Below, piece by piece: positions 16,710 through 62,922 of a stretch of DNA of 64,000 nucleotides. The notes under the pieces were generated by a model. The model was given only the letters and a program-made list of their open reading frames with translations, was not told the origin of the DNA and ran no database searches. The position numbers and the translations under genes are program-made. The stretch spans positions 1 through 64,000 of the IMG/VR virus record IMGVR_UViG_3300045988_142085; one strand, written 5' to 3'. Every line of letters begins with the position of its first letter. Position 1 is the first letter of the stretch. This DNA is from a virus.

Positions 16710-16862
16710 CTTTCTGTAATCAAATAAAACTAAATAGTGCTGCGTATTATAAAAATATCTTATTGCAATATATGTTTTATGCTTTGGGGAAACATTTTAA
16801 TATAATGCAGTAAGACATAATGGTGCTCCCACCTGGGATCAAACCAGGGACCCTCCGGTTAT

Positions 16863-17795
16863 CTTACTACTATAATTTTCATTACCATTAAAATAAATGT
16901 TTGTAGTCTGGACTATATCTTCACCATTTCAGGTGTCCACGTGTAGTCTCTACGGAGTCTCTTTTTACAAGAGTTCCCTCGGTATTAGCATATGTTACCA
17001 CTTAGCCTTCACCGATACAGTGGATTACTTACATAGAGTTTCTAATTCCTCTTTACGTAGCTCAATATCCCTTTTTCTAAAAGGTAAACCATAATATTTA
17101 CACCATTTTCTTACTGCATTATCTGAAACATTATATTTTCTACCTATTTCAAGAAAAGAAGTAGTTAATATTAGTCCAGCCAAAGTTTTTTTGTCTGGAC
17201 GAGAAACTTTTCTTAATTTTAAATTTGGCGTATATTTGCGTTTATTAATAATTCCTTTTTTCTTGTTACATTTTTTACAATATACAGATTTGGAATTGTG
17301 ATTCATTTTTTTGCCACAACATTTACACCTTGGTTTAATAGTTTTTCCATAAAATTTAGCAGATTTTATTTGATTTTCAGAATGAGTAAGTAATTCCAAA
17401 TTTTCTAAAGAATTATTATCTTTATTATGATCTATATGATTAATTTCCATACTAGACGGGATAACACCAACAAAAGTCCTATACACCAAACGATGTACGT
17501 ATAAATGTTTTCCTGATATTTTTACTGCATTATATCCAACATTATTTTTATAAATCTTCATTTTTCTAAAAATCATATTGTTTTTAATGCAAAAAATATT
17601 TTCATCTAACTCTTTTTCTGGCTTGCCATATTTATGAGAACGATGATACATTGTATTATTAATAATAATATAATAATCTGGATTGCATTTTTTTAATACG
17701 CTATCTCCAGATTTATTAATATAATACAATGGAGAAAATTCTATTTGTTTGTAATCATTCATGAAACCTCACATATAAATATATGAGTAAGATTT
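16863..17795 (-). mobile_element. group I intron carrying an HNH homing endonuclease ORF
   Basis: Core lies downstream of the ORF: R CGUAGAGACUACACG and S AAGAUAUAGUCCAGAC, then a P9-like hairpin, ending ...GUAG UAAG directly before the tRNA 3' half. The ORF starts 35 nt after the 5' splice site and has its own SD (GAGG). Confidence 0.65.
17025..17762 (-). CDS. intron-encoded HNH homing endonuclease with a C-terminal HTH
   Basis: HLYVHRLVYRTFVGVIPSSMEINHIDHNKDNNSLENLELLTHSEN (HNH_3/NUMOD-type); zinc ribbon CKCCGKK...CKKC; C-terminal helix-turn-helix. Confidence 0.8.
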   Translation of the reverse strand: MNDYKQIEFSPLYYINKSGDSVLKKCNPDYYIIINNTMYHRSHKYGKPEKELDENIFCIKNNMIFRKMKIYKNNVGYNAVKISGKHLYVHRLVYRTFVGVIPSSMEINHIDHNKDNNSLENLELLTHSENQIKSAKFYGKTIKPRCKCCGKKMNHNSKSVYCKKCNKKKGIINKRKYTPNLKLRKVSRPDKKTLAGLILTTSFLEIGRKYNVSDNAVRKWCKYYGLPFRKRDIELRKEELETLCK

Positions 17796-17883
17796 GAGCC
17801 GGTCGCTCTATCTCTGAGCTATAGGAGCATATAAAAACGGCACATAGAATTTAATATAACTCTATATGCCGTAGATTAAAATA

Positions 17884-22549: not shown

Positions 22550-22951
22550 TTATTTTTTATCGTCAACTGCAACAAGTTCTCCACCGACAACTTTCCAGAT
22601 TCTACCATCGGCAGCATCTTTGCCGATAATATCTTCTCGAGACATATAATCGAGAGAATCGTTAAAATCGTCATAGATTTCTTCGAGACCATCTTTAATA
22701 TAGTTATTCATAAAAACACTTTTATCGGGATATGGATCGACAAAAGCTTCTTCGATTTGACCTTTGCGAATACGATTATATTCTTCCATCGTCATAATAC
22801 ATCCAGTATTAACATGTTCGATAAAGAATTCTGGATAGCGAATTTGATCACCACTTAAACTCGAATAGAATCGGTCACCTTGCCAGATGACTCTTCGTAT
22901 TTGATATGCATCACGCATAATATCACCTTTATTTAAATAATATAGATTCAA
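22550..22951 (-). CDS. hypothetical protein
   Basis: 133-aa ORF; first gene downstream of the 1.8-kb non-coding region. Confidence 0.45.
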   Translation of the reverse strand: MNLYYLNKGDIMRDAYQIRRVIWQGDRFYSSLSGDQIRYPEFFIEHVNTGCIMTMEEYNRIRKGQIEEAFVDPYPDKSVFMNNYIKDGLEEIYDDFNDSLDYMSREDIIGKDAADGRIWKVVGGELVAVDDKK

Positions 22952-23490
22952 TTTGAAAGCATCTATATATTACTTATATCTTATTTCAATCGACTATATT
23001 TATCACATAATCGACTCAAATAAGATATTGTACTACCAGATAAAAGGTGTGTGTATGCAAATTATCGAAACACTGGTAGTACAAATCTTAAATTTTTGTT
23101 ACGTAATTTAAATAAAATATTAAATATCACTAATTATTTTTGGCCGCAAGGATAGCCTTTAAATATTCTTTAAATATAAGCAAATTAGATTAAGTTTTCT
23201 TAAGATCGCAACCAATCCATAAATTGTTATTACTATATCAATCTGGAGACGCTCATGTAAAGTATGAAACTGTTAAAAATCGGATTACATTAGCATCGTA
23301 ACTTAATCATCGTAATCTGCTTAAATTATTTAACCTATCCTAACAGGAAACGTTTGTAAGTACTAAACGTAATCTTATAGCTTAAATATTATATTCTACA
23401 CAATAATAACTTTCCTGCGAGAGAAACGTTTAACTGCAGCTTATTAAGGAATCGCCGCCAGCTTATTTTAGAAGATTCATTCGCATTATC

Positions 23491-23596
23491 TAACACTCGA
23501 GCGACTGGCCAGAAATTGTAAATTAAAAAGATGTTATGTGTGCAATCATAACATCTCATTATTTAAACCGTTTAAGCTGCCAGTCGAATCAAACGT
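23491..23596. repeat. structured repeat unit, copy 1: outer stem CGACTGGC/GCCAGTCG enclosing inner hairpin GATGTTATG-TGTGCAATC-CATAACATC
   Basis: About 78% identical to copy 2. The inner hairpin differs by paired compensatory substitutions (GAUGUUAUG/CAUAACAUC versus GAAGUUAUG/CAUAACUUC). Confidence 0.6.
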
Positions 23597-23674
23597 TCTT
23601 AGCGAATGAATCATAGGATTCAGAATCATCAATATTGTATAGAGTATGATATTCTTGGTCACTCGCCATCATAT

Positions 23675-23776
23675 AACATTCAAGCGACTGGCGAGAGGTT
23701 GTAAATTAAAAGAAGTTATGTTGTGCAGCATAACTTCTCATTATTTAACACTCATAAGCGCCAGTCGAATCAAACC
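23675..23776. repeat. structured repeat unit, copy 2
   Basis: CAAGCGACTGGCGAGAGGTTGTAAATTAAAAGAAGTTATGTTGTGCAGCATAACTTCTCATTATTTAACACTCATAAGCGCCAGTCGAATCAAAC; outer stem of 9 bp. Confidence 0.6.
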
Positions 23777-23829
23777 TAAATGGCGAGTGAAAGCTATTCA
23801 AGATTTTTTATATCATATAAAATAGTGTA

Positions 23830-24760
23830 TTTTGTTTTCCTGTTTTATATAGACTAATCCCGTGCGGCAGCACGAATTAGTTAAAAATATATATACTATA
23901 TATTAATATAGTATAGTTTTGCTTCACTAGAAGTAATTGTTTCTTTATTACTAAAGCTCTTGACTACTTCCTACGATATTAGTCTGTAGAATACTCACGT
24001 ATTCCTCTCGTCTTTCCCGACATTTAGCGTTTCCGCACAATCGTAGATCCCGTCCTATTGCTGTATTCACCAATGAGGAGTGTCCTCTTATTTTTGTTTA
24101 AGAGGAACAACGAGTCCCCCCGGGTCTTATTTAACCATGGTAACTTTCTAAACTTAATTAACATTCTGTATCTTAACTGCAATGTTTTGTGCATTCGCTA
24201 CTTTAGGCTGTATACGGACTTATAACCTATTTGCCCGCTGACGTTGATCCTGCTAGTTCCGACTTGAGTACACAAAATTACTCTTGCTGGTCCGGGATAT
24301 AAACGGTATCGTATAGCTATCCTCTATATCCTATCCAACCACAAATCGCTATCGTTAACGACTACAGATCCTCTGATTTCTTATCAAATATCGGTCCGCA
24401 AAATGTAGCTGATCACCGAGTCGATTTTCCTAGATGCGCTCGACTACACACCGTTGTTACGCCTAACCTATATTAACCAATTAAGGCAGGACAGCATTAT
24501 CATCACGACAAGGCTTTCATGTCCTTTATAGGCTCGTAACCCGCGCCATCGGGGTCCATACTATAGAGTTCTTAAATACAGGGCCTCTATAATACAATGC
24601 CTTCCATTACGTTTCCATATGTATATTTGCACTCATACGTTGCAACTAGTGACATATTTCCATCGTCTATCCCTATGAAGACACAAGATAGTTTCGAAAT
24701 ACGATATATTAAATTGTTAACTTTATTATAAGATATAATTCGACGGTTGTCAAACTATAT
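23830..24760. ncRNA. candidate large structured non-coding RNA (alternatively part of a replication origin); about 900 nt, ORF-free in all six frames, GC about 45% against a background near 30%
   Basis: No ORF of 60 aa or more anywhere in 22952..24771. The strongly elevated GC and many local GC-rich hairpins (for example CGTGCGGCAGCACG and CCTCTTA-TTTTTGT-TTAAGAGG) suggest selection for RNA structure. Strand undetermined. Confidence 0.3.
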
Positions 24761-24771
24761 ATTACACGAAA

Positions 24772-27700
24772 TTAAAAACTTGACACAAAATTTTGCAATT
24801 CTTTTTTGTACGAATTTTCATACCGATATAACTTTTGGTTATGACTAAATCGAGTCCGCACGTCAAGAAGTAAATGATATTGGTTATCAAGATTAATCTT
24901 TTGTTTCTTTAACGGCTTCTTTGCCAAAACGATTCGTTCAAGTTTGAAGCTATCCATATCAACGATCTTTTCGACCTTATCGGCATACTTGTTGATCGAG
25001 ATAACATCGTCGTCATTTTCATATTCGACTTTATCTAACATATCTCTATAGATAGCATTAGTATTATCTTGATTGCCGCTAACAAGACTACTTAAACCTT
25101 CATCGTCGAAATCGCCTTCAAGAACTTTTACGCTCTTAAGCTTTTCGGCCATGAACTTAATTAATGTTTCTTGAACGGTGCCAGCATAATACATGTAATA
25201 GATGCTTACATTATTCTTTTGATTTAATCGATAACTTCTTCGAGCTGCTTGACGCATCGTAAAGAAATTCTGATCGAGTTCATAAAATACGATCGTCGTA
25301 AAATCTAATAAGTCTAAACCAGTATCGACCATACCAGGATTACAGATTACGACACGGACGCCTTCTGCTTTTTTCTTCTCGAACCATTCGATTCGTTTCA
25401 TGGCAGAAGTCGAGCTTTTAAGAATAGCTGTTTTAATACCTTCTTGTTGTAATCTGTCATAGATTATACTATTGATATCATTATTTGTATCGTAATAAGT
25501 ATATACTAAAACACATTCCTGATCATGGTGATTAATGATCTTCATTAGTTCGTCGAGCTTATGATTATCGCGAACACCGGTACCGCGATATTCGATATAA
25601 TCGTCGGCGATGAAGCATGGATTATCACTCCAAGCTGCAAGTTTTTTAATCTCCTGATGTTTATATCGAGCCGGAACAGTAGCATTAGATAAATTACTTA
25701 TTAAATTATTATAGGCTTCAATATTTTCTTTATTTAACTCACATTTAATAATAGATTCATTATAGGCCGGTAGTTCAGAACTAACGTCGTCCATTGACAT
25801 AAATACACAACAGTTACTTAATAACTTAATAAAGATATTAGGATTAATACCAGGAGCATCTTTTGTCTTAGTCGTACATTCGACATTAGCAGTAGTATTA
25901 CCTAATTTATCTTTTTCTAAGAACTGAACATTTAAATAGCGACCCCAGTTATGATTAATATACGTAAAGTCGACAGCATTTTCAAGTTTATACAACTGAT
26001 TTTCATAAGGAGTATATTCAACTTCCTTATAGCTATAACGATCTTTAAATTGCTTTTTCATGCCTCCACGGAAGTCTGGATTTCGCTTCATATATTCTTC
26101 GTATTCATTTTTAATCTTCTCAGGATAAAAATACAAGAACATATTATATAAATTTTCAGCATAACCATTAAATAGTGTACCGGTTAATCCTAATATTTTC
26201 TTAGCACAAGAAGCTAATCGTTGTACACCATGACCTTGCGCACTATTCGTCAAGAATTCGTGCATTTCATCGACAATTAACATATCGACATTATGACGAC
26301 CCTTACGTTGAATATACCAGTCTAGACTAGCAAAATTAGCAGCTTTTTGTTCGCTAATATCGATCGCTTTAACAATTTGATCGATATCATAACTCATGAT
26401 ATTCTTGTTATCGATCTTTTTAGTATCGATTAAAGAAGCACATGCTTTAACTTTAGGAGCATCTAAGTAATCTCGATAACGAATTGTTTCTTCACGATCG
26501 CCTTTTTTGTGCTCAGACTTAGAATGAATTCTTAAATATCGAATATAGCCCCATTCATTTCGACCATCGACTAAAATAATACTATCCTTTTTTTCTTTAT
26601 CTAATACATTCTTAACATGTTTTAAACAATCGATACTAGTATTTCTAGTTTTAATAACGGATTGTTTAATGCAATTAGGATTAACAAGAATATAATTAGT
26701 CGATAATCGTTTATTAATTTCTGGTTCAATATGTTCGATATATTCTTTGGTGCTATTACATTCATAGATTTTAGCATTAGGAGCCAAGATATTAATATCT
26801 TTACTCCATTTTTTAATTAAATGAGTCGGGCATACAACGAATACATTTTTATTTAAACCGCTTTTCCATAAACTAGCAATACTAATAGCCATACTAGTTT
26901 TACCGGTACCTGGTTGAGAAATTAAAAAGCCAGCTTTTTCTTTTTTAAGATGGCGATGCATCGCATTAATGATATTCTTTTGATTTGTAAACAGATTAAA
27001 ATCACGTTTATAACCTAAATAATCACTAAATGCTTGGACTTCAGGATCGAAACCTTTGTTAGGATCGAATGTAATATTAGTCGATTTATTTACAGTTGCC
27101 GATAAATCGTTAATATTATTATAAATGAAATCGTTAATTGTCATGTCTTCATGAATATAATCGGCATTTTCACCGTCATCGGCATCCCTAACAATATCTT
27201 CGACACTGTCGGTATAATATCCGTAAGCCGGCATTTTGAATATCGTAAATTCTAATTCTTTATTTTCGATAACATAAGAATTATCGAGAGCTTTATTAGT
27301 ATTAAAGAATAAATCGACAAGGTTTTCGTTAAAGAATGAGCCATTAGCCTCTTTATTTAAATACTCGATATAGTTAGCGACTAGAATTTCTTTATTTTCA
27401 CGAATATAGTCGGATTTTAAAAAATCTTTTTTATACTCTAAAATAACGCTATCCTTATTGTCGCCTAGTAAAAATAATACATAGAATTTATTCTTAGTTT
27501 CAGCATAAAACCTATGCATATTATATGGAAGATTAGATAAATTATTGTTAGATGTTATTGTACAATCTCTTATTTCTTTACGAAATTCATAATTATATGC
27601 TTTCTCAAAATACTCGAGAGTGTCTTTTATTTTTTTGTTATAAGACTTAGATCCTGTACTATAGAGATCTAATAATACAAACGTATCAAAATCTGTAAAT

Positions 27701-27798
27701 ACTTTAGCGGCTAAGTCTTTATATTTTTTATCGAAATTAAAAAAGGCTCTACCAGATTTCTTGGAGAGCTTTTTAATTTGATTAATATCTATTTTCAT
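24772..27798 (-). CDS. SNF2-family (SF2) DNA helicase/translocase with a 290-aa N-terminal domain
   Basis: Walker A ISQPGTGKTSMAI; DEMHE (DExH); SNF2 motif III-IV LGLTGTLFNGYAENLYNMFLYF; motif VI MRQAARRSYRLNQ. Confidence 0.75.
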   Translation of the reverse strand: MKIDINQIKKLSKKSGRAFFNFDKKYKDLAAKVFTDFDTFVLLDLYSTGSKSYNKKIKDTLEYFEKAYNYEFRKEIRDCTITSNNNLSNLPYNMHRFYAETKNKFYVLFLLGDNKDSVILEYKKDFLKSDYIRENKEILVANYIEYLNKEANGSFFNENLVDLFFNTNKALDNSYVIENKELEFTIFKMPAYGYYTDSVEDIVRDADDGENADYIHEDMTINDFIYNNINDLSATVNKSTNITFDPNKGFDPEVQAFSDYLGYKRDFNLFTNQKNIINAMHRHLKKEKAGFLISQPGTGKTSMAISIASLWKSGLNKNVFVVCPTHLIKKWSKDINILAPNAKIYECNSTKEYIEHIEPEINKRLSTNYILVNPNCIKQSVIKTRNTSIDCLKHVKNVLDKEKKDSIILVDGRNEWGYIRYLRIHSKSEHKKGDREETIRYRDYLDAPKVKACASLIDTKKIDNKNIMSYDIDQIVKAIDISEQKAANFASLDWYIQRKGRHNVDMLIVDEMHEFLTNSAQGHGVQRLASCAKKILGLTGTLFNGYAENLYNMFLYFYPEKIKNEYEEYMKRNPDFRGGMKKQFKDRYSYKEVEYTPYENQLYKLENAVDFTYINHNWGRYLNVQFLEKDKLGNTTANVECTTKTKDAPGINPNIFIKLLSNCCVFMSMDDVSSELPAYNESIIKCELNKENIEAYNNLISNLSNATVPARYKHQEIKKLAAWSDNPCFIADDYIEYRGTGVRDNHKLDELMKIINHHDQECVLVYTYYDTNNDINSIIYDRLQQEGIKTAILKSSTSAMKRIEWFEKKKAEGVRVVICNPGMVDTGLDLLDFTTIVFYELDQNFFTMRQAARRSYRLNQKNNVSIYYMYYAGTVQETLIKFMAEKLKSVKVLEGDFDDEGLSSLVSGNQDNTNAIYRDMLDKVEYENDDDVISINKYADKVEKIVDMDSFKLERIVLAKKPLKKQKINLDNQYHLLLDVRTRFSHNQKLYRYENSYKKELQNFVSSF

Positions 27799-28283
27799 TA
27801 GTATAAATTACCTTTTTCAATCTTATTAATATAGTTGATATAAGGTCGACCAGACTCAGTCGATTTAAATTTATTGTCGCCAATATATTCGAAATTAGTA
27901 AATTTCTTAGAACCACCAACAATATAATTGCCGGCGATTTTATTTTTTAGTTTATCGCTTAACATATATAAAGCAATATATTTCTTATCGACTGGCAATA
28001 GAGAATTAAATGGCTTCTCTTTAATTTCGCCTGTCGAAAACTGAATATCGACAGCTTCATCGAGATAATCATTATAATTAGTATTATTAGCGTATACGAA
28101 TTCAGGAATGTCGGTAAGAGAGAATACTTTGATGCCTTCTCGTTCACCGATTAATTCGCCATTACTAATATCGACTTTACTGTCGATAAAAATAATATAC
28201 TTTTCTTCGCCATGATTAAGATCTTTTGGTTGCGGATTACTGAACCTCATATAATTAAAATCATATGATTCTAAAAATAACAT
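27798..28283 (-). CDS. hypothetical protein
   Basis: 161-aa ORF; its ATG lies 29 nt after the tnpB stop. Confidence 0.45.
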   Translation of the reverse strand: MLFLESYDFNYMRFSNPQPKDLNHGEEKYIIFIDSKVDISNGELIGEREGIKVFSLTDIPEFVYANNTNYNDYLDEAVDIQFSTGEIKEKPFNSLLPVDKKYIALYMLSDKLKNKIAGNYIVGGSKKFTNFEYIGDNKFKSTESGRPYINYINKIEKGNLY

Positions 28284-28312
28284 AAAGTTATTTTATTAAG
28301 AAGTTTGATTTT

Positions 28313-29575
28313 CTAAGAAACCCTTATTCTTTTAGGCGTGTCCAGTTCGCCTCTACTGCATAAGATTGTTAAATCTACAGCGCTACTTTTGCGAAGAATA
28401 TTTAATGCTCCATTACAATCTGCATTAAAAAGATAACCATCTTTAGTTTTATATAAACCTCTTTTAACGCGTTTACCACTAAAATCATAAGTTTGTGGAT
28501 TATCCATATTATAAACAGGCAATTCATCATTATCAAAAAAACTAGCTTTAGACGTATAAGATTCTTCTTGTAAGATATAATTAATATTATATCGTTTACA
28601 TAAATATTCTAATTTTTCTCTTATTTTACCGAATGGCAACTGAGTAAAAATTTGATTAGTTTTTTTACCTAAGTTAGTTTTATTTTGAAATGATTGATTG
28701 TAACCAATTACTAAAGTACCAATATCATTAATTAAACAATAGTTAATAATATAACGACATGCTTTATTGATATAATCATCAACTCTATTTTTTCTCTTAC
28801 GAGAAATTAAATATTGTTGTTTTGTATGTCGTCTAATATTTTGTTTATCTTTGATAGATTGTAATTTTGCATTTTGCTTATTAAAGAATTGATTAATAGA
28901 CTTTAATTTTCTTCCATCAATGATAAAAGATTTACCTGTACTAGTAACACAAGTACATAGATTATTTACGCCTAAATCAATAGCCAGTGCATTGTTAGTA
29001 TTTAATTGTATATCTTCTTCTTGAATTTCGTAAGTATACTGAATCTCGAAGAACCTAGCATTAAATTTAGGAATAATTTGAATTTCTTTTATCTTCTTAT
29101 CTTCTAATACTTTAGGAATTTTAATTTGAATTTTAGTTTCATATTTTTTCTTAAAAGTATTAGAATATGGAATTGTTAAAACATTGTCTTTTCTAAGCCT
29201 AATTTGACCAATTATTAAATTTGAATAACTATTTTTAGGTAAATATTTTGGCATTCTAATATGTTTAAAGCTATATTTACCTTGCTTAGCTAATTTAATT
29301 AGAGTAAAAAATGATTTGAACATTGCGTCAACGTCTTTAAGGGTTTGTTGGGCCATATTGGAATTTAACAATTTATAATTATCAGAATTCTTTAATTCGT
29401 GATAATTAGATTCATATCTTAAATATTGCTTTTCTTGCAAATAATGTTGTCGAACATTATATATTGCTTGATTAGTTAAATTCTTAGCTATTCTACACAA
29501 CTCTCTTAAAACATTATATTCTTCTTTAGTTAAGTGTTTTACTTGTTGCTTTATCGTTAGATACATTATGATCAC
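28313..29575 (-). CDS. tnpB: TnpB (OrfB) RNA-guided endonuclease of the IS200/IS605 family
   Basis: RuvC-I AIDLGVNN, RuvC-II QEESYTSK, RuvC-III NADCNGALNILRK; N-terminal OrfB_IS605 helical region; 420 aa with no frameshift. Confidence 0.85.
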   Translation of the reverse strand: MIIMYLTIKQQVKHLTKEEYNVLRELCRIAKNLTNQAIYNVRQHYLQEKQYLRYESNYHELKNSDNYKLLNSNMAQQTLKDVDAMFKSFFTLIKLAKQGKYSFKHIRMPKYLPKNSYSNLIIGQIRLRKDNVLTIPYSNTFKKKYETKIQIKIPKVLEDKKIKEIQIIPKFNARFFEIQYTYEIQEEDIQLNTNNALAIDLGVNNLCTCVTSTGKSFIIDGRKLKSINQFFNKQNAKLQSIKDKQNIRRHTKQQYLISRKRKNRVDDYINKACRYIINYCLINDIGTLVIGYNQSFQNKTNLGKKTNQIFTQLPFGKIREKLEYLCKRYNINYILQEESYTSKASFFDNDELPVYNMDNPQTYDFSGKRVKRGLYKTKDGYLFNADCNGALNILRKSSAVDLTILCSRGELDTPKRIRVS

Positions 29576-29689
29576 CTCGCTTTCTAATATTATATTACAA
29601 GCTAATCATAACATATATTTACTGAAAAAGCAACTTTTTAGTAAAATTTTTACAGGACATTTTAGAACCATATTTCTAAAATCAATTAG

Positions 29690-30105
29690 AGGTCTCGTTC
29701 AGCCAAAGACGCTACTCTTTGACCGGCACCATTACATGCACCTTTAGCTTTCACTAAAGCACAGACTATATCTTATCCATATTATATTTTCATATAACTT
29801 AGGCGACACCACTTCCCCGGGCTTCCGGGTACGACCCTCACGAGGTCTAGTCGTTGAACCTTTCCTTAACAAAATATTAAGGCTTGGCTGCTGATCGTCC
29901 ATTATTACAAGACTTAGGGTTTAACCTTATCTCATCTCAGAAATTTATTTCTACTTTCGTAACTCGTGCAGCTAAGCCGCACAAGTATTCTGAGCTTTAG
30001 AAGTTTCCAGCAATTCAGTGTCTTTGTCGGACGGGTAAGAACCGTCACTACCTACTAGTTTCCCAATAGGCTTACTATTTTGTTAAAATATATCTTATGA
30101 TTAAA
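29690..30105 (-). ncRNA. group I intron catalytic core (the 5' module of the IStron)
   Basis: Minus strand carries P GAAUUGCUGGAAAC, Q GAUCAGCAGCC, R GGUUCAACGACUAGACC (close to the canonical GUUCACAGACUAAAUG), S AAGAUAUAGUCUGUGC (canonical AAGAUAUAGUC), and a P2 hairpin GACGG-UUCUUAC-CCGUC. Confidence 0.6.
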
Positions 30106-30115
30106 ATCACAAGTG

Positions 30116-30814
30116 TTATTTTGACATCTTAATAACTATATCATTAGTCCATATACTTCTATCGTAATAACCATCACAGTAAAAATCAATAAAAGATGAT
30201 GGCTTAACATTATCTTTTATCTTTTTAAGGTTTTTAAATAATACGATATCATAATCTGTATTGACCCAAAATTCTACAGATCGTGGTATTTTGTTTTTTA
30301 CAAAACTATATGGATTAAATTTAATATTTTCATAATCACAAAAATCTAAAATGATATTAGATAGATCGCTAATGAATCCTTCTTTAATATCACCACAAAT
30401 ATTCATGATTTCAGAATATATCTCCCAGATTACGGAACGATAAAAAATAAAACGATGTAATGAATTTTCACCTAAGAAATTAGAATATAATCTAATTTGA
30501 TTACCAAATTCTTTTTTAATAGATTCATTGTTAAATTGAACGAGATATCCCATTAACACTTCTTCAAATCGTTCATGATTATTTCTATCTTCATGTGTAA
30601 AATCTACTTCTTCTAAATATTGATATAGCATTATATTTTCATATTCAGTTTCGAATACATCGAGACGTTTGCAAATTCTATCGATAATGAAAAATCGTGT
30701 AAGAATTTGTGAATAGAAGCTAATTCCTCTTTTGCAGAAGTAATATTCTTTAATTTTTAAATCTGGAAAATATTTTGAGAACAGTGAATTAAACTGTTTT
30801 ATTGACTCTTTCAT
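30116..30814 (-). CDS. hypothetical protein; overlaps the 3' end of the polymerase ORF by 26 nt in another frame
   Basis: 232-aa ORF whose stop lies about 20 nt before the intron module. Confidence 0.45.
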   Translation of the reverse strand: MKESIKQFNSLFSKYFPDLKIKEYYFCKRGISFYSQILTRFFIIDRICKRLDVFETEYENIMLYQYLEEVDFTHEDRNNHERFEEVLMGYLVQFNNESIKKEFGNQIRLYSNFLGENSLHRFIFYRSVIWEIYSEIMNICGDIKEGFISDLSNIILDFCDYENIKFNPYSFVKNKIPRSVEFWVNTDYDIVLFKNLKKIKDNVKPSSFIDFYCDGYYDRSIWTNDIVIKMSK

Positions 30815-32598: not shown

Positions 32599-32805
32599 TT
32601 ACCAGCAATCCGGACAAACAATTTTTTTAGTGTCTAAATCGTATACAGCGCAATCGTCGCAAATTACTTTGCCACACTTACTGCACACCATTTTATATTC
32701 TTCTTCGCATGGCTGACCACATTGTTCACATCGGAAATACCCTTCAGGAACTGGAGGTTGATCCGACGTTAATTTGTGCCACCATGCTTTAATTTTTTTA
32801 ATCAT
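32599..32805 (-). CDS. small C4 zinc-ribbon protein
   Basis: CEQCGQPC...CSKCGKVICDDC...CPDCW; 68 aa; its start overlaps the primase stop. Confidence 0.45.
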   Translation of the reverse strand: MIKKIKAWWHKLTSDQPPVPEGYFRCEQCGQPCEEEYKMVCSKCGKVICDDCAVYDLDTKKIVCPDCW

Positions 32806-33947
32806 AGGCCATACCTTTTAAGCTCTTTCTCGAGAATTATTTTAGCAGCAGAATCTTCTTCGACACTCTTTATTGCTATACTCAGTTGATCTTTATATTT
32901 ATTAAGAACACGTTGACGATTGTCTTCGTATTCATTACTAAAATCTTTAAGCACGTGTCGATAATATGGAACTTGTCTACCTTTAACAATACTAGGCAGT
33001 TCATATTTATATTTATTTGCCATATCGGCCAAATCTAAATCTTTGTCGAGCCATACAATATCGGGATACAGATCATATTTGCCGAACATTTCGATAGCTT
33101 GATCGACATCTTTTTCGCCATGCCAATCACGATCATATACGATAACGGGCTTCAGCCCTGTCGATTCGATTAGATTAACATGTTTATCGTCTAATATGGT
33201 TCCCATCGTGCAAACGCAATTTTGAAGACCATATTTGGTTGCCAAAATAACGTCGAAACAGCCTTCTGTTAAATAAATATAATCGAGACTATAATTAATT
33301 TTATTTAAACCATATAAATAACGACTCTTAGTAAAGAATTTGTTCTTATTATCGACAAAATATTTATTAGCAACTTCATCGTCGATAGCTCTTTTACAGA
33401 AGCTAACTAAATGATTATATGCATCATATAACGGAATAGTGATACGACCTCTAACGTCGTAACCTAAACCCCATTCACGAACATCGCTACCAACTAATCC
33501 ACGGCTTAAAATATACTTCTGAGCTTTTTCGCTTTGCTTAAGATCTTCGATATACCTTTGATTTTCCTTTTCATTCGATTCAAGATAAGCAGTTTCTTCA
33601 TTCTGAGGTTTTAATCCAGTAATTTGAATTGCTTTCTCGATGGCATCTTGGAAGCTTGCTTTTTTGTCGCCATGGTTCATCATCCACCAGATAAATGCTA
33701 TAGCATTACTGCCGAATAATCTTTTTTCGGTGTTTTGTTTACCGACATGACAACCAAAGCAAGCCCAAGTTTGAGCGCCATGTTTATTCCAAATTTTAAA
33801 ACTCGGAGTTTTATCGTTATGATCTGGATGAGGACAAGAAGCTTGCCATAAATTACCAACTTTTTGAACTTTGGTATATTGACTGGCAAGCTTAACAATG
33901 TCTATTTTTTCATTTAATCTTCGGATAAACTCTGTAGTATATTTCAT
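32802..33947 (-). CDS. DnaG-type DNA primase (CHC2 zinc finger plus TOPRIM)
   Basis: Zinc finger SCPHPDHNDKTPSFKI...CFGCHVGK; TOPRIM YLTEGCFDVILATKYG...VIVYDRDWHGEKD. Confidence 0.8.
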   Translation of the reverse strand: MKYTTEFIRRLNEKIDIVKLASQYTKVQKVGNLWQASCPHPDHNDKTPSFKIWNKHGAQTWACFGCHVGKQNTEKRLFGSNAIAFIWWMMNHGDKKASFQDAIEKAIQITGLKPQNEETAYLESNEKENQRYIEDLKQSEKAQKYILSRGLVGSDVREWGLGYDVRGRITIPLYDAYNHLVSFCKRAIDDEVANKYFVDNKNKFFTKSRYLYGLNKINYSLDYIYLTEGCFDVILATKYGLQNCVCTMGTILDDKHVNLIESTGLKPVIVYDRDWHGEKDVDQAIEMFGKYDLYPDIVWLDKDLDLADMANKYKYELPSIVKGRQVPYYRHVLKDFSNEYEDNRQRVLNKYKDQLSIAIKSVEEDSAAKIILEKELKRYGL

Positions 33948-34772: not shown

Positions 34773-35035
34773 CTTACTATTTCTAGTAAGATCGGACTCT
34801 ATCTTTAATTTTTTATTTAAAAATTATTTCCTGTTCAATGTATACATTGTTTACTTATATCTTATTAAGATACTTTCAATAGTCTCTGAACCTTTATCTT
34901 TGTCACCAAAGATACTTGGCTGCGGATTGTCCAATCTTAATCTTTTTTACTGTATCAAGATAATTACTCTTGCCCCATATTATATCACTATATATGGTTA
35001 GTAGATTAAGCTCTAAGGAGATCCCCGTCAATTTA
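34773..35035 (-). ncRNA. group I intron (ORF-less, about 263 nt) in the helicase gene
   Basis: Minus strand carries R GGUUCAGAGACUAUUG (34892..34877), S AAAGAUAGAGUCCGAUC (34802..34786) and a P9 hairpin CUUACUAGAAAUAGUAAG ending in G. The 5' exon ends ...GCCCUCU (U). Splicing joins ...EQTHAL to FNTRMMNCQSAKYLIEMEP. Confidence 0.6.
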
Positions 35036-36321
35036 GGAAATTTAAAGAGGGCATGAGTTTGTTCACCCTCTGCGCCAGCGTTAGAAGCAATTAGGACATT
35101 ACATTCTTGTGTATTATTAAATTTTTGTAATTGATTATATCGTTCTTCACTTGAGTGAGAGCCATTAATAAAGGCGATTTGAATTCCTTTAAAACGATTT
35201 TCTAAATACGTTTTAAGAATTCCTTGTGCTGTTCTATACTTACAGAACACAACAACTTTTTCACCTTCACTTAAAATACTCTCGACTAAGTCTAAGAACA
35301 ATTCAATCTTTTCAGATTTTTCGCCAGTCACATATTCTTGTGCCGCTTTACTATCGCTTAGTAATAATAACTCATCACTAATAGTAAGCTCTTGAGCAAA
35401 TGTTTGTTTCATTAAGATCATATTATCGATCTTATTAAATTCTTCATTCTTTCTAGCTTCTTCGATCGAATTAAACCGTTCAAGCATAACTTCTTGTTGT
35501 GCTTTAAGATCTTTGATTTCTTCGAGGAGCTTATCACTCATAGCTTGTACTTTTCTACCTAAAGAGCAAAATTTTTGAGCGACGACAAGTTTAGGTAAAT
35601 GACTGCTTACTTCTTCTTTCGTTCGGATAATTAAATTATGTTTAATTTTATCGGTTAATTCTCGTTCATTACGAGAACCGATAATATATCCGAGACTATT
35701 CTTTTTGACATATTGTTTATCGAATTTATTTATATTAGTAAACAAATCTTTTTTGATAAATCTATATATGCCAAATATATCTCGAGGATTTTTTTGAATC
35801 GGAGTTGCTGTTGCTCCGAAAGTATACTTTATATTATTAAATTTATATAGGCTTTTACTTCGTTTGGCTTGATAGCTTTTTACATATTGTACTTCGTCGG
35901 CAAAAATATATTCTAATTTCATTGCCAACAAACGTTCTCGAACTTTTTCGTCGTTAAGCGTTTCATAGTTACAAATAAGTAAATCGCCAACAAACTGATT
36001 ATCGAAGTTTTTCTTAGCCTTTGCTGAAGTTTCTAAAATGCTCGGAATCAGATCACTAAACTTCTGAACTTCATGGAACCATTGAACTTTTAAACTACTT
36101 TTAACTACGATTAATCCTGGACCTTTTATTTTCTTACGGTCTAAAAGTTCTAGATAAAGATCGATCGCTATTAAAGTTTTGCCAGCCCCGCAGCTTGCGA
36201 CGATTAAGCTACCTTCATCAATATCGAGAAGTTCTTTTACGGCTGTCTTTTGATAATTATAGAGTTCATATTTACATTTACCGATACCTTCGATGCTAAA
36301 ATTCGGACAATATAATAGCAA
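35036..36321 (-). CDS. SNF2-family helicase, exon 1 (motifs I to V)
   Basis: Walker A SCGAGKTLIAID; DEVQ box FADEVQY; SNF2 signature FGATATPIQKNPRDIFGIYRFI; motif V IASNAGAEG. The track ORF 34903..36321 continues about 40 codons into the intron. Confidence 0.75.
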
Positions 36322-62438: not shown

Positions 62439-62652
62439 CCTTTATACCCTCGGTTTCCCGATATTTATTAGGGGAGTAGACTATATCATCATCTTAATTA
62501 AGATGTTCTGCGCTTCCGTTACGAATGTAACGTACTCCTTTCGGATAGTCGTTGGGGCGCAATTAAGCTGCCTGCTGATTACCTCGATGGGCTTCCCAGC
62601 ATATCACAGAATTTGCATATAATTATCACTAATTATAGGGGCAAAATTAATT
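62439..62652 (-). ncRNA. group I intron (ORF-less, about 214 nt), recA intron 1, inserted in the Walker A codons
   Basis: Exon 1 ends ...IAGVADSG (GGU) and exon 2 starts KTSLVL, which restores GxxxSGKTS. Minus strand carries P AUAUGCUGGGAAGCC, Q AAUCAGCAGG, R CCCAACGACUAUCCG, S GAUGAUAUAGUCUACUCC. The intron ends ...AAAGG. Confidence 0.65.
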
Positions 62653-62922
62653 ACCCGAGTCTGCAACGCCAGCGATAGTCGTAATTTTCCCAATCGGAAA
62701 ACCACCGCCAGTTGCTGCATTAAAGTTAACAGATGGTGTCGGAATAAATCGAATATTAAGCTGTTCCTGAACTTTAGGATCACTTAATCGACCGACAACC
62801 ATGTTGTTCTTTTTCTTAGCCAAGTTAGCCATTACAAGATCTAATCGCTTACGTCTTTCGACGTCAGTTAAGACTTGAGAATTGCTAGCTTCGACAATTG
62901 GTTCAGCTTTCTTTCTTGCCAC
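62653..62922 (-). CDS. recA: RecA, exon 1
   Basis: MARKKAEPIV...RKRLDLVMANLAKKKNNMVVGRLSD...NFNAATGGGFPIGKITTIAGVADSG (compare E. coli ...[31 protein letters not shown]). Confidence 0.75.

Follow-up and report, generated by a model that had tools for sequence, protein, structure and literature searches.

Several described systems of phages and plasmids combine structured RNAs, promoters and hairpins in ways that resemble the locus reported here. In phage lambda, pR', the 6S RNA and tR' join a strong consensus promoter to a noncoding transcript and to a stem-loop with a U-run, placed before genes of the same strand. The RNase III hairpins R0.3 to R1.3 of the T7 early region are paralogous intergenic hairpins with internal loops, five in number and spread out along a polycistronic transcript, in which the loop sequences are conserved and the stems covary. 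The put RNAs of phage HK022 are cis-acting structured phage RNAs, present in two copies, that govern terminator read-through; put is about 70 nt long, is made of two adjacent stem-loops, and occurs at two different operons. A promoter, a long structured RNA and a strand-specific hairpin of about 100-150 nt with invariant blocks, all located in a replication region, are found with ColE1 RNA II and the primosome assembly site, G4-type ssi sites and ssoA, the last of which carries a conserved CS-6 (TAGCGT) in its terminal loop. Finally, GOLLD and ROOL are very large, highly structured RNAs without coding potential (PMC12286853, PMC5737381), which occur in phages and prophages, often near tRNA genes (PMC5737381).

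Our locus lies in a stretch of 64,000 nucleotides of viral DNA (IMG/VR record IMGVR_UViG_3300045988_142085, positions 1 to 64,000; hereafter the window), which is part of a large phage genome with ORFs almost all on the minus strand. The genes of the window include those for a DnaG primase, a split Pol III alpha, SNF2 and UvrD helicases, a Pnkp/RNA-ligase protein, NrdD and YadA-like adhesins, and two group I introns and two tRNA genes were called in it. Within a replication block (Gam, DnaG primase, Pol III alpha, helicase), a gap of 1.8 kb (22952-24771) without any ORF of at least 100 aa extends from the stop codon of a helicase gene (1008 aa, 24772-27798, minus strand) to the start codon of ORF133 (133 aa, 22550-22951, minus strand); ORF133 and a lysin gene are the genes downstream of the gap on the minus strand. 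Among relatives, the gap is better conserved than its flanking genes (92-93% identity vs 86-88%). It gave no DNA match among GenBank phages with megablast or blastn (tblastn with the helicase returned remote matches only) and no match in Rfam 15 at the gathering threshold, with just microRNA and snoRNA noise at E<=10, and our literature searches found no earlier description.

Some other features of the window may be recorded here. Two adjacent ORFs (41816-45511) code for YadA-like trimeric autotransporter adhesins that comprise head, stalk and membrane-anchor domains; this suggests a diderm host and an unusual phage-borne adhesin. The two group I introns (Rfam RF00028) are located at 34773-35094 and 62457-62662 (66 and 65 bits); in the direction of transcription, the former precedes the DnaG primase gene (32802-33947) by about 0.7 kb, and it overlaps an uncharacterised 472-aa ORF (34903-36321) at that ORF's 3' end. 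An apparent split tRNA gene is present at 16820-17836 on the minus strand: its 5' half (GCTCCTATAGCTCAGAGATAGAGCGACCGGCTCAAAT, about 17836-17800) and its 3' half (CCGGAGGGTCCCTGGTTTGATCCCAGGTGGGAGCACCA, about 16858-16820) are about 940 nt apart with an HNH endonuclease ORF (17025-17762) in between, the anticodon loop reads CAA (Leu), and neither ARAGORN nor Rfam calls it. An insertion of about 1.9 kb (28240-30130), missing from most relatives, carries a tnpB gene (28313-29575, minus strand) with OrfB_IS605 and Cas12f-like TNB domains, and the break at 28239/28240 fits the right end and guide boundary of the omega RNA of this element. In one relative (L005), a copy 85.6% identical is inserted about 440 nt away, so the tnpB element has moved within the phage clade.

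The gap holds both copies of a hairpin element. The features of these two units are as follows.

23468-23618, minus strand: unit 1, the first copy of the original prediction and the distal one in the transcript (covariance model R1, 175.8 bits)
23474-23484/23602-23612, minus strand: P1 of unit 1, GATTCATTCGC/GCGAATGAATC, 11 Watson-Crick pairs read from the sequence, invariant among orthologues
23502-23509/23579-23586, minus strand: P2 of unit 1, CGACTGGC/GCCAGTCG, sequence-invariant in 33/33 distinct copies
23528-23557, minus strand: apical P3 of unit 1, an 11-bp stem with an 8-nt loop, flagged as terminator-like (ΔG -11.7 kcal/mol)
23518-23527, minus strand: U-run after P3 of unit 1, UUUAAUUUAC
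23654-23795, minus strand: unit 2, the proximal copy and a paralogue that has diverged to 77-80% identity with unit 1 (R1, 85.8 bits)
23659-23669/23780-23790, minus strand: P1 of unit 2, TCACTCGCCAT/ATGGCGAGTGA, read from the sequence
23685-23692/23760-23767, minus strand: P2 of unit 2, CGACTGGC/GCCAGTCG, invariant
23710-23739, minus strand: apical P3 of unit 2, flagged as terminator-like (ΔG -11.5 kcal/mol)
23700-23709, minus strand: U-run after P3 of unit 2, UUAAUUUACA

Each unit is a single nested rod of about 150 nt (P1-P1b-P2-P2b-P3), in which 47 pairs form four stacked helices; it thus contains the near-continuous double-stranded RNA of at least about 20 bp, with internal loops, that is typical of T7-type RNase III sites. 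The original prediction had described two copies of a double hairpin of about 100 nt, repeated with a period of about 185 nt and read on the plus strand. Both copies, with the stems CGACTGGC/GCCAGTCG that it took as outer ones, are indeed read in the sequence, and the measured period is 181-183 nt. The U:A to A:U swap that it noted between the inner 9-bp stems (GATGTTATG/CATAACATC in copy 1 and GAAGTTATG/CATAACTTC in copy 2) is real, and the loops differ too. Its size and its shape have to be revised to a longer, single rod closed by an outer P1; the conserved segments that it considered single-stranded are partly paired in the fold, the hairpin folds best on the minus strand, and the large RNA, the promoter and the terminator-like apex at the locus had escaped it.

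Sequence is invariant in P2, in the segments that flank it (GUUUGAUUCGACUGGC, GCCAGUCGCU) and in the U-run after P3. The loop of P3 is free to vary (AUUGCACA, UGCACAA, UAUA), as expected for a structural hairpin. Between unit 1 and unit 2, P1 shows a compensated change from U:A to C:G, and in two relatives (L039 and L050) P1 of unit 2 reads UUACUCGCC/GGCGAGUAA, a swap from C-G to U-A. A direct repeat of about 20 nt (plus strand CATTATNTAAACCGTTNAAGC; in RNA form GCUU(A)AACGGUUUA(A/G)AUAAUG) is present twice in each unit, once on each arm (23484-23502, 23557-23577, 23667-23685 and 23739-23759), which suggests that the hairpin may have grown via an older internal duplication. Two other candidate features were discarded. 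A 56-aa ORF (23389-23559, minus strand) is not a gene, as its frame meets a TAA after 20 codons in most relatives and also suffers indels not divisible by three, and the motif AGCGACTGGC only looked enriched (nine sites vs 0.9 expected), the other sites being unrelated coding or tRNA sequence.

Folded as minus-strand RNA, unit 1 and unit 2 have minimum free energies of -49.3 kcal/mol (z -7.1) and -53.6 kcal/mol (z -8.1), and the minus-strand RNA is more stable than the plus-strand RNA in 21 of 22 units. This difference in energy is partly an effect of base composition, and we therefore counted the specific pair cells that depart from Watson-Crick pairing: 116 are G·U on the minus strand vs five A·C (which would be G·U on the plus strand). 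Helix P1b exists on the minus strand only. As DNA, the minus strand folds with -26.7 and -28.9 kcal/mol (z -6.2 and -7.1) and the plus strand with -25.1 and -28.8 kcal/mol.

In a model-based alignment of the 33 distinct copies, 94.5% of the pair cells are paired, and double changes occur in 14 pairs (52 cells), a number reached in none of 500 shuffles, with slid controls giving at most three. Because the structure guided this alignment, and because P1 of unit 2 has an uncertain register in it, the double-change counts in P1 are partly inflated and should be taken as upper bounds. It was used instead of a minus-strand MAFFT alignment (A3) that misaligned unit 2 and in which RNAalifold lost P3. 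A MAFFT alignment of 17 orthologues has 95.5% of its pair cells standard and four pairs with double changes. In P3, 4-5 positions change with compensation in independent lineages, producing variants such as GAUGUUAUG/CAUAACAUC, GAGAUUGUG/CACAAUCUC, GAAGUUAUG/CAUAACUUC and GAGGUCAUG/CAUGAUCUC. Considering the fold z-scores, the roughly 30 contigs that carry the element and a covariation that exceeds both shuffled and slid controls, the unit is not a chance feature, and selection on base pairing, as the original prediction had proposed, is strongly supported. That prediction admitted either an RNA or a single-stranded DNA hairpin as the carrier of the structure. We think that RNA is the better-supported of the two, because the G·U pairs exist on the minus strand only, because the units follow a demonstrably structured RNA of that strand at a distance of about 55 nt, and because this upstream RNA itself follows a perfect consensus promoter.

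The relatives used in these comparisons were obtained by scanning IMG/VR with a pattern and with the helicase, and by one metagenome scan; together, these recovered about 30 contigs of one phage clade (genomes of about 150-232 kb, helicase identity 83-92%). Contrary to what the window suggested at first reading, two copies are not the rule: a single unit, orthologous to unit 1, is present in 12 of 16 IMG/VR relatives, and two units are found in the window, in L001-L004 and in several metagenome contigs. The paralogues are 77-80% identical and the orthologues 89-99%; as the former are far less alike than the latter, the two-copy state goes back to an old tandem duplication of 183 nt. This duplication is confined to a subclade, both copies still fold, and where a genome has two units, conservation is higher in the distal one. 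The covariance model R1 detected no further copy in the 64-kb window, in the searched flanks or in a sister clade, its matches elsewhere being only at the syntenic locus. In a pattern scan of 185,579 species genomes there was one match (L057), in a lake Betaproteobacteria MAG, presumably due to chance. Three other pattern matches (L024, L025 and L042) fall in GC-rich coding sequence and are chance matches; another (L048), of the same match length as L042 and under the model threshold, is presumed to be one too.

The part of the gap upstream of the units, in the sense of transcription, contains the following features.

24725-24753, minus strand: sigma-70 consensus promoter TTGACA-17-TATAAT, 12/12 matches
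23851-24684, minus strand: core of a large structured noncoding RNA, about 830-870 nt (RNAalifold, 242 predicted pairs)
23817-23835, minus strand: small hairpin between the RNA core and unit 2, with two covarying pairs

The promoter is located 19 nt past the stop codon of the helicase gene and about 900 nt upstream of the units; it is the sole 12/12 match in 20 kb and is conserved in 17 of 17 aligned genomes. In the upstream RNA, 99.6% of the pair cells are paired across 17 genomes and 21 pairs show double changes (vs 9.1 in shuffles and at most one in slid controls), in an alignment that is nearly invariant. The small hairpin that follows has UA changed to CG in four sequences and GC changed to AU in seven. 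The RNA of about 850 nt has no Rfam match even at E<=10. It resembles GOLLD and ROOL in being very large, highly structured and devoid of coding potential, but it is unrelated to them in sequence and matches neither family in Rfam. We consider it a large structured phage RNA that had not been described before. As a discovery, it arguably outweighs the hairpin.

In a sister clade, with a helicase 41% identical, the gene order is kept around a gap of 1.9 kb. A promoter (TTGACG...TATAAT) directly follows the helicase stop, in the same position as in the window, and GC-richer sequence extends over the next 650 nt or so, before a canonical terminator and two long hairpins (z -7.9 and -4.9); the positional analogue of the RNA of about 850 nt is found at 11128-11825 of L035. 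No homology between the gap of the window and that of the sister clade was detected by blastn, nhmmer or k-mers (21 shared 8-mers vs 15 expected, with shuffles reaching 36), and the sister-clade gap has no Rfam match. The architecture is thus conserved between the two clades although the sequence is not.

Downstream of the units, the last part of the gap shows the following.

23432-23463, minus strand: small hairpin AGCUG...CAGCU just downstream of unit 1, with GC changed to AU in three sequences and CG to UA in one
22952-23430, minus strand: AT-rich end portion of the gap, containing the short direct repeats TTACGAT and TAGGATAAATAAT
23257-23289 (approximate), minus strand: hairpin UGUAAUC...GAUUACA-like that encloses the invariant CCGAUUUUUAACAGUUUCA, two pairs with compensatory changes
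23232-23261, minus strand: promoter-like site, 10/12 positions, with TG before the second hexamer, overlapping the preceding hairpin
22976-23028: 22-nt palindrome just before ORF133 (inverted repeat I1)

The short repeats (23300-23430 in the window, 10270-10400 in L009) form modules of 35-50 nt whose number varies from relative to relative (indels of about 55 and 115 nt), and they look iteron-like. In both clades, the first ORF past the gap is directly preceded by a near-perfect palindrome of 22-34 nt (22976-23028 in the window, 12990-13064 in L035), which might serve as an operator or as a 5' hairpin. A weak sigma-70-like match, TCGACT-17/18-AATAAT (9/12), is present in the 5' arm of both units; 9/12 matches occur at chance frequency (12.8 expected in 2.6 kb).

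From the promoter to the start codon of ORF133, the minus strand has no terminator-like site other than the two P3 hairpins. By its anatomy, P3 resembles an intrinsic terminator, with a stable stem that contains some G-C pairs and an immediate U-run: its ΔG lies between -9 and -13.6 kcal/mol in 32 of the 33 distinct copies, and UU(U)UUAAUUU stands directly 3' of the stem in all 33. These values are comparable with those of the other terminator-like hairpins of the phage, which range from -12.6 to -20 kcal/mol, and with the -9.4 of the terminator that follows the RNA of the sister clade. We favour, tentatively and somewhat short of an even chance, the idea that the unit functions as a domain of an RNA, either a leaky or conditional terminator or a processing hairpin, that separates the noncoding RNA from the downstream genes. 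A minus-strand transcript, or leader, would start at the promoter 24753-24725 and would include the unit as one of its domains; the polymerase would first make the structured RNA of about 850 nt and then reach the unit or units, where P3 and its invariant U-run would cause leaky or conditional intrinsic termination. In the transcripts that read through, the basal strands of P1, P1b and P2 would pair, completing the rod of about 47 bp with its invariant internal loops, which may be a site for a double-strand-specific nuclease or for a binding protein that trims or stabilises the 3' end. The net effect would be to fix where the noncoding RNA ends, to set it apart from ORF133 and the lysin gene and to limit the output of the strong promoter into them. 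From this arrangement we infer that the promoter is active, that P3 causes termination, and that some factor processes or binds the rod. P3 cannot terminate efficiently, since the conserved and covarying 3' strands of P1 and P2 lie past the U-run and need frequent read-through; such read-through is also indicated by the two compensated small hairpins downstream of the unit and by the better conservation of the distal copy. Against even a leaky terminator, one can argue that a plain terminator does not require an invariant P2 and invariant internal loops, and that the stem of P3 has just three G-C pairs and an 8-nt loop. The arrangement differs from that of lambda tR' in that the noncoding transcript is about 1 kb long and elaborately structured and that the terminator-like hairpin is nested in a rod of 150 nt whose 3' half lies past the U-run; no Q-like or N-like factor is known here. 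Compared with put of HK022, the unit is a single nested hairpin of 150 nt, in tandem copies, with its own terminator-like apex.

The apex could also be deceptive, the terminator look being incidental to a hairpin devoted purely to RNase III-type processing or stability, in which a cut in the rod would free the noncoding RNA and leave protective hairpins. The interrupted duplex of about 47 bp with conserved internal loops, the conservation of the full hairpin, including the strands past the U-run, and the structured RNA that continues downstream all fit this proposal, as does the fact that the paralogues keep their internal-loop sequences while their stems covary, just as T7 sites do (the units being, however, about three times longer than the T7 hairpins and present in one or two copies at a single locus). 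We nevertheless hold it to be unlikely, as it leaves the invariant U-run right after P3 unexplained, and as the sister clade has a separate canonical terminator beside its long hairpins, which suggests that termination is part of the design. The same structural features could be read in another way, as a protein-binding RNA or as a decoy or regulator acting in trans whose dose was raised by the duplication. The invariance of P2 and of the loop sequences, the retention of a tandem duplication with both copies structured, and the internal direct repeat of about 20 nt, twice in each unit, are compatible with such a role; given that each genome has a single locus, that neither a dedicated promoter nor a partner gene was identified, and that there is no likeness to any Rfam family, CRISPR repeat or ToxI-like repeat, it appears improbable to us.

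Other hypotheses place the function in DNA. We regard as unlikely that the unit is a single-stranded DNA hairpin (an ssi, primosome-loading or sso-like site) at a transcription-primed origin, where the strong promoter would make a structured primer RNA, as with ColE1 RNA II, DNA synthesis would displace the non-template strand (identical in sequence to the RNA), and the hairpin on this displaced strand would attract primase or helicase to act for the opposite one. The location of the locus inside the replication block is in line with this model, under which the favoured strand would be the one displaced by a transcription-primed fork; so are the minus-strand DNA folds (z -6.2 and -7.1), the invariance of P2 and of the loops, as expected for a site recognised by a protein, and the AT-rich DNA with short direct repeats of variable copy number after the units. 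The 9/12 sigma-70-like match in the 5' arm of both units recalls single-stranded DNA promoters, but its frequency is that of chance. The helices, moreover, lean on G·U pairs (three of nine in P1b of unit 1, and the closing pairs of P3), which are weak as G·T in DNA, the plus-strand DNA folds nearly as well, and the small covarying hairpins that flank the units are more typical of RNA. There is no turn of the cumulative GC skew at the gap, although the skew is uninformative when all genes are on one strand, and no initiator protein or replicative helicase loader was identified nearby. Unlike in ColE1, ssi or ssoA, neither an RNase H site nor a CS-6 or RSB-like consensus was identified, the loops of the units reading AUUGCACA, UGCACAA and UAUA. 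A broader version, in which the whole gap is the transcription-primed origin of the phage of about 230 kb, with the promoter leading to a folded primer RNA of about 0.9 kb, the hairpin serving as priming or loading site on the displaced strand, the iteron-like repeats coming next and the duplication tuning the origin, is in our opinion distinctly unlikely. It is highly improbable that the units act as double-stranded DNA, either as operator or iteron sites or with the 5' arm as promoter for the downstream genes: the invariant GACTGGC/GCCAGTC half-sites, the four copies of the 20-nt direct repeat (at 23484, 23557, 23667 and 23739) and the promoter-like match in each unit could be so interpreted, but a protein site does not explain about ten compensated stem positions with G·U intermediates on one strand, the half-sites are about 70 bp apart, and the second direct repeat is without a -35 element. 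Finally, the shape of a long imperfect palindrome and the mobile tnpB element 4.5 kb away evoke a selfish miniature inverted-repeat element or an IS200/IS605-end remnant related to this tnpB. We give this almost no credence: the unit is always at the same locus, with no other copy in the 64-kb window or in the searched flanks and hence not the multiple dispersed copies of such elements; it is absent from the 185,579 species genomes save for the Betaproteobacteria match presumed to be chance; it does not match the ends of the tnpB element; and its copies arose via local tandem duplication.

The hairpin matches no described family and, by its likely mechanism, is a variant of terminator or processing hairpins. 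It is a well-supported new structured element of about 150 nt, with heavy covariation, invariant internal loops and no Rfam family, and it is the visible tip of a noncoding locus of 1.8 kb kept in two distantly related clades of phages of about 230 kb from human-associated metagenomes. To our knowledge, phages have few large structured RNAs such as GOLLD and ROOL, whose functions are unknown. The new large RNA has a clear promoter, its 3' module is defined and copy-number variants exist in nature, which makes it a tractable system. As a conditional terminator, the hairpin would reveal how these phages gate transcription at the edge of the replication block; as a single-stranded DNA site, it would instead locate their origin.
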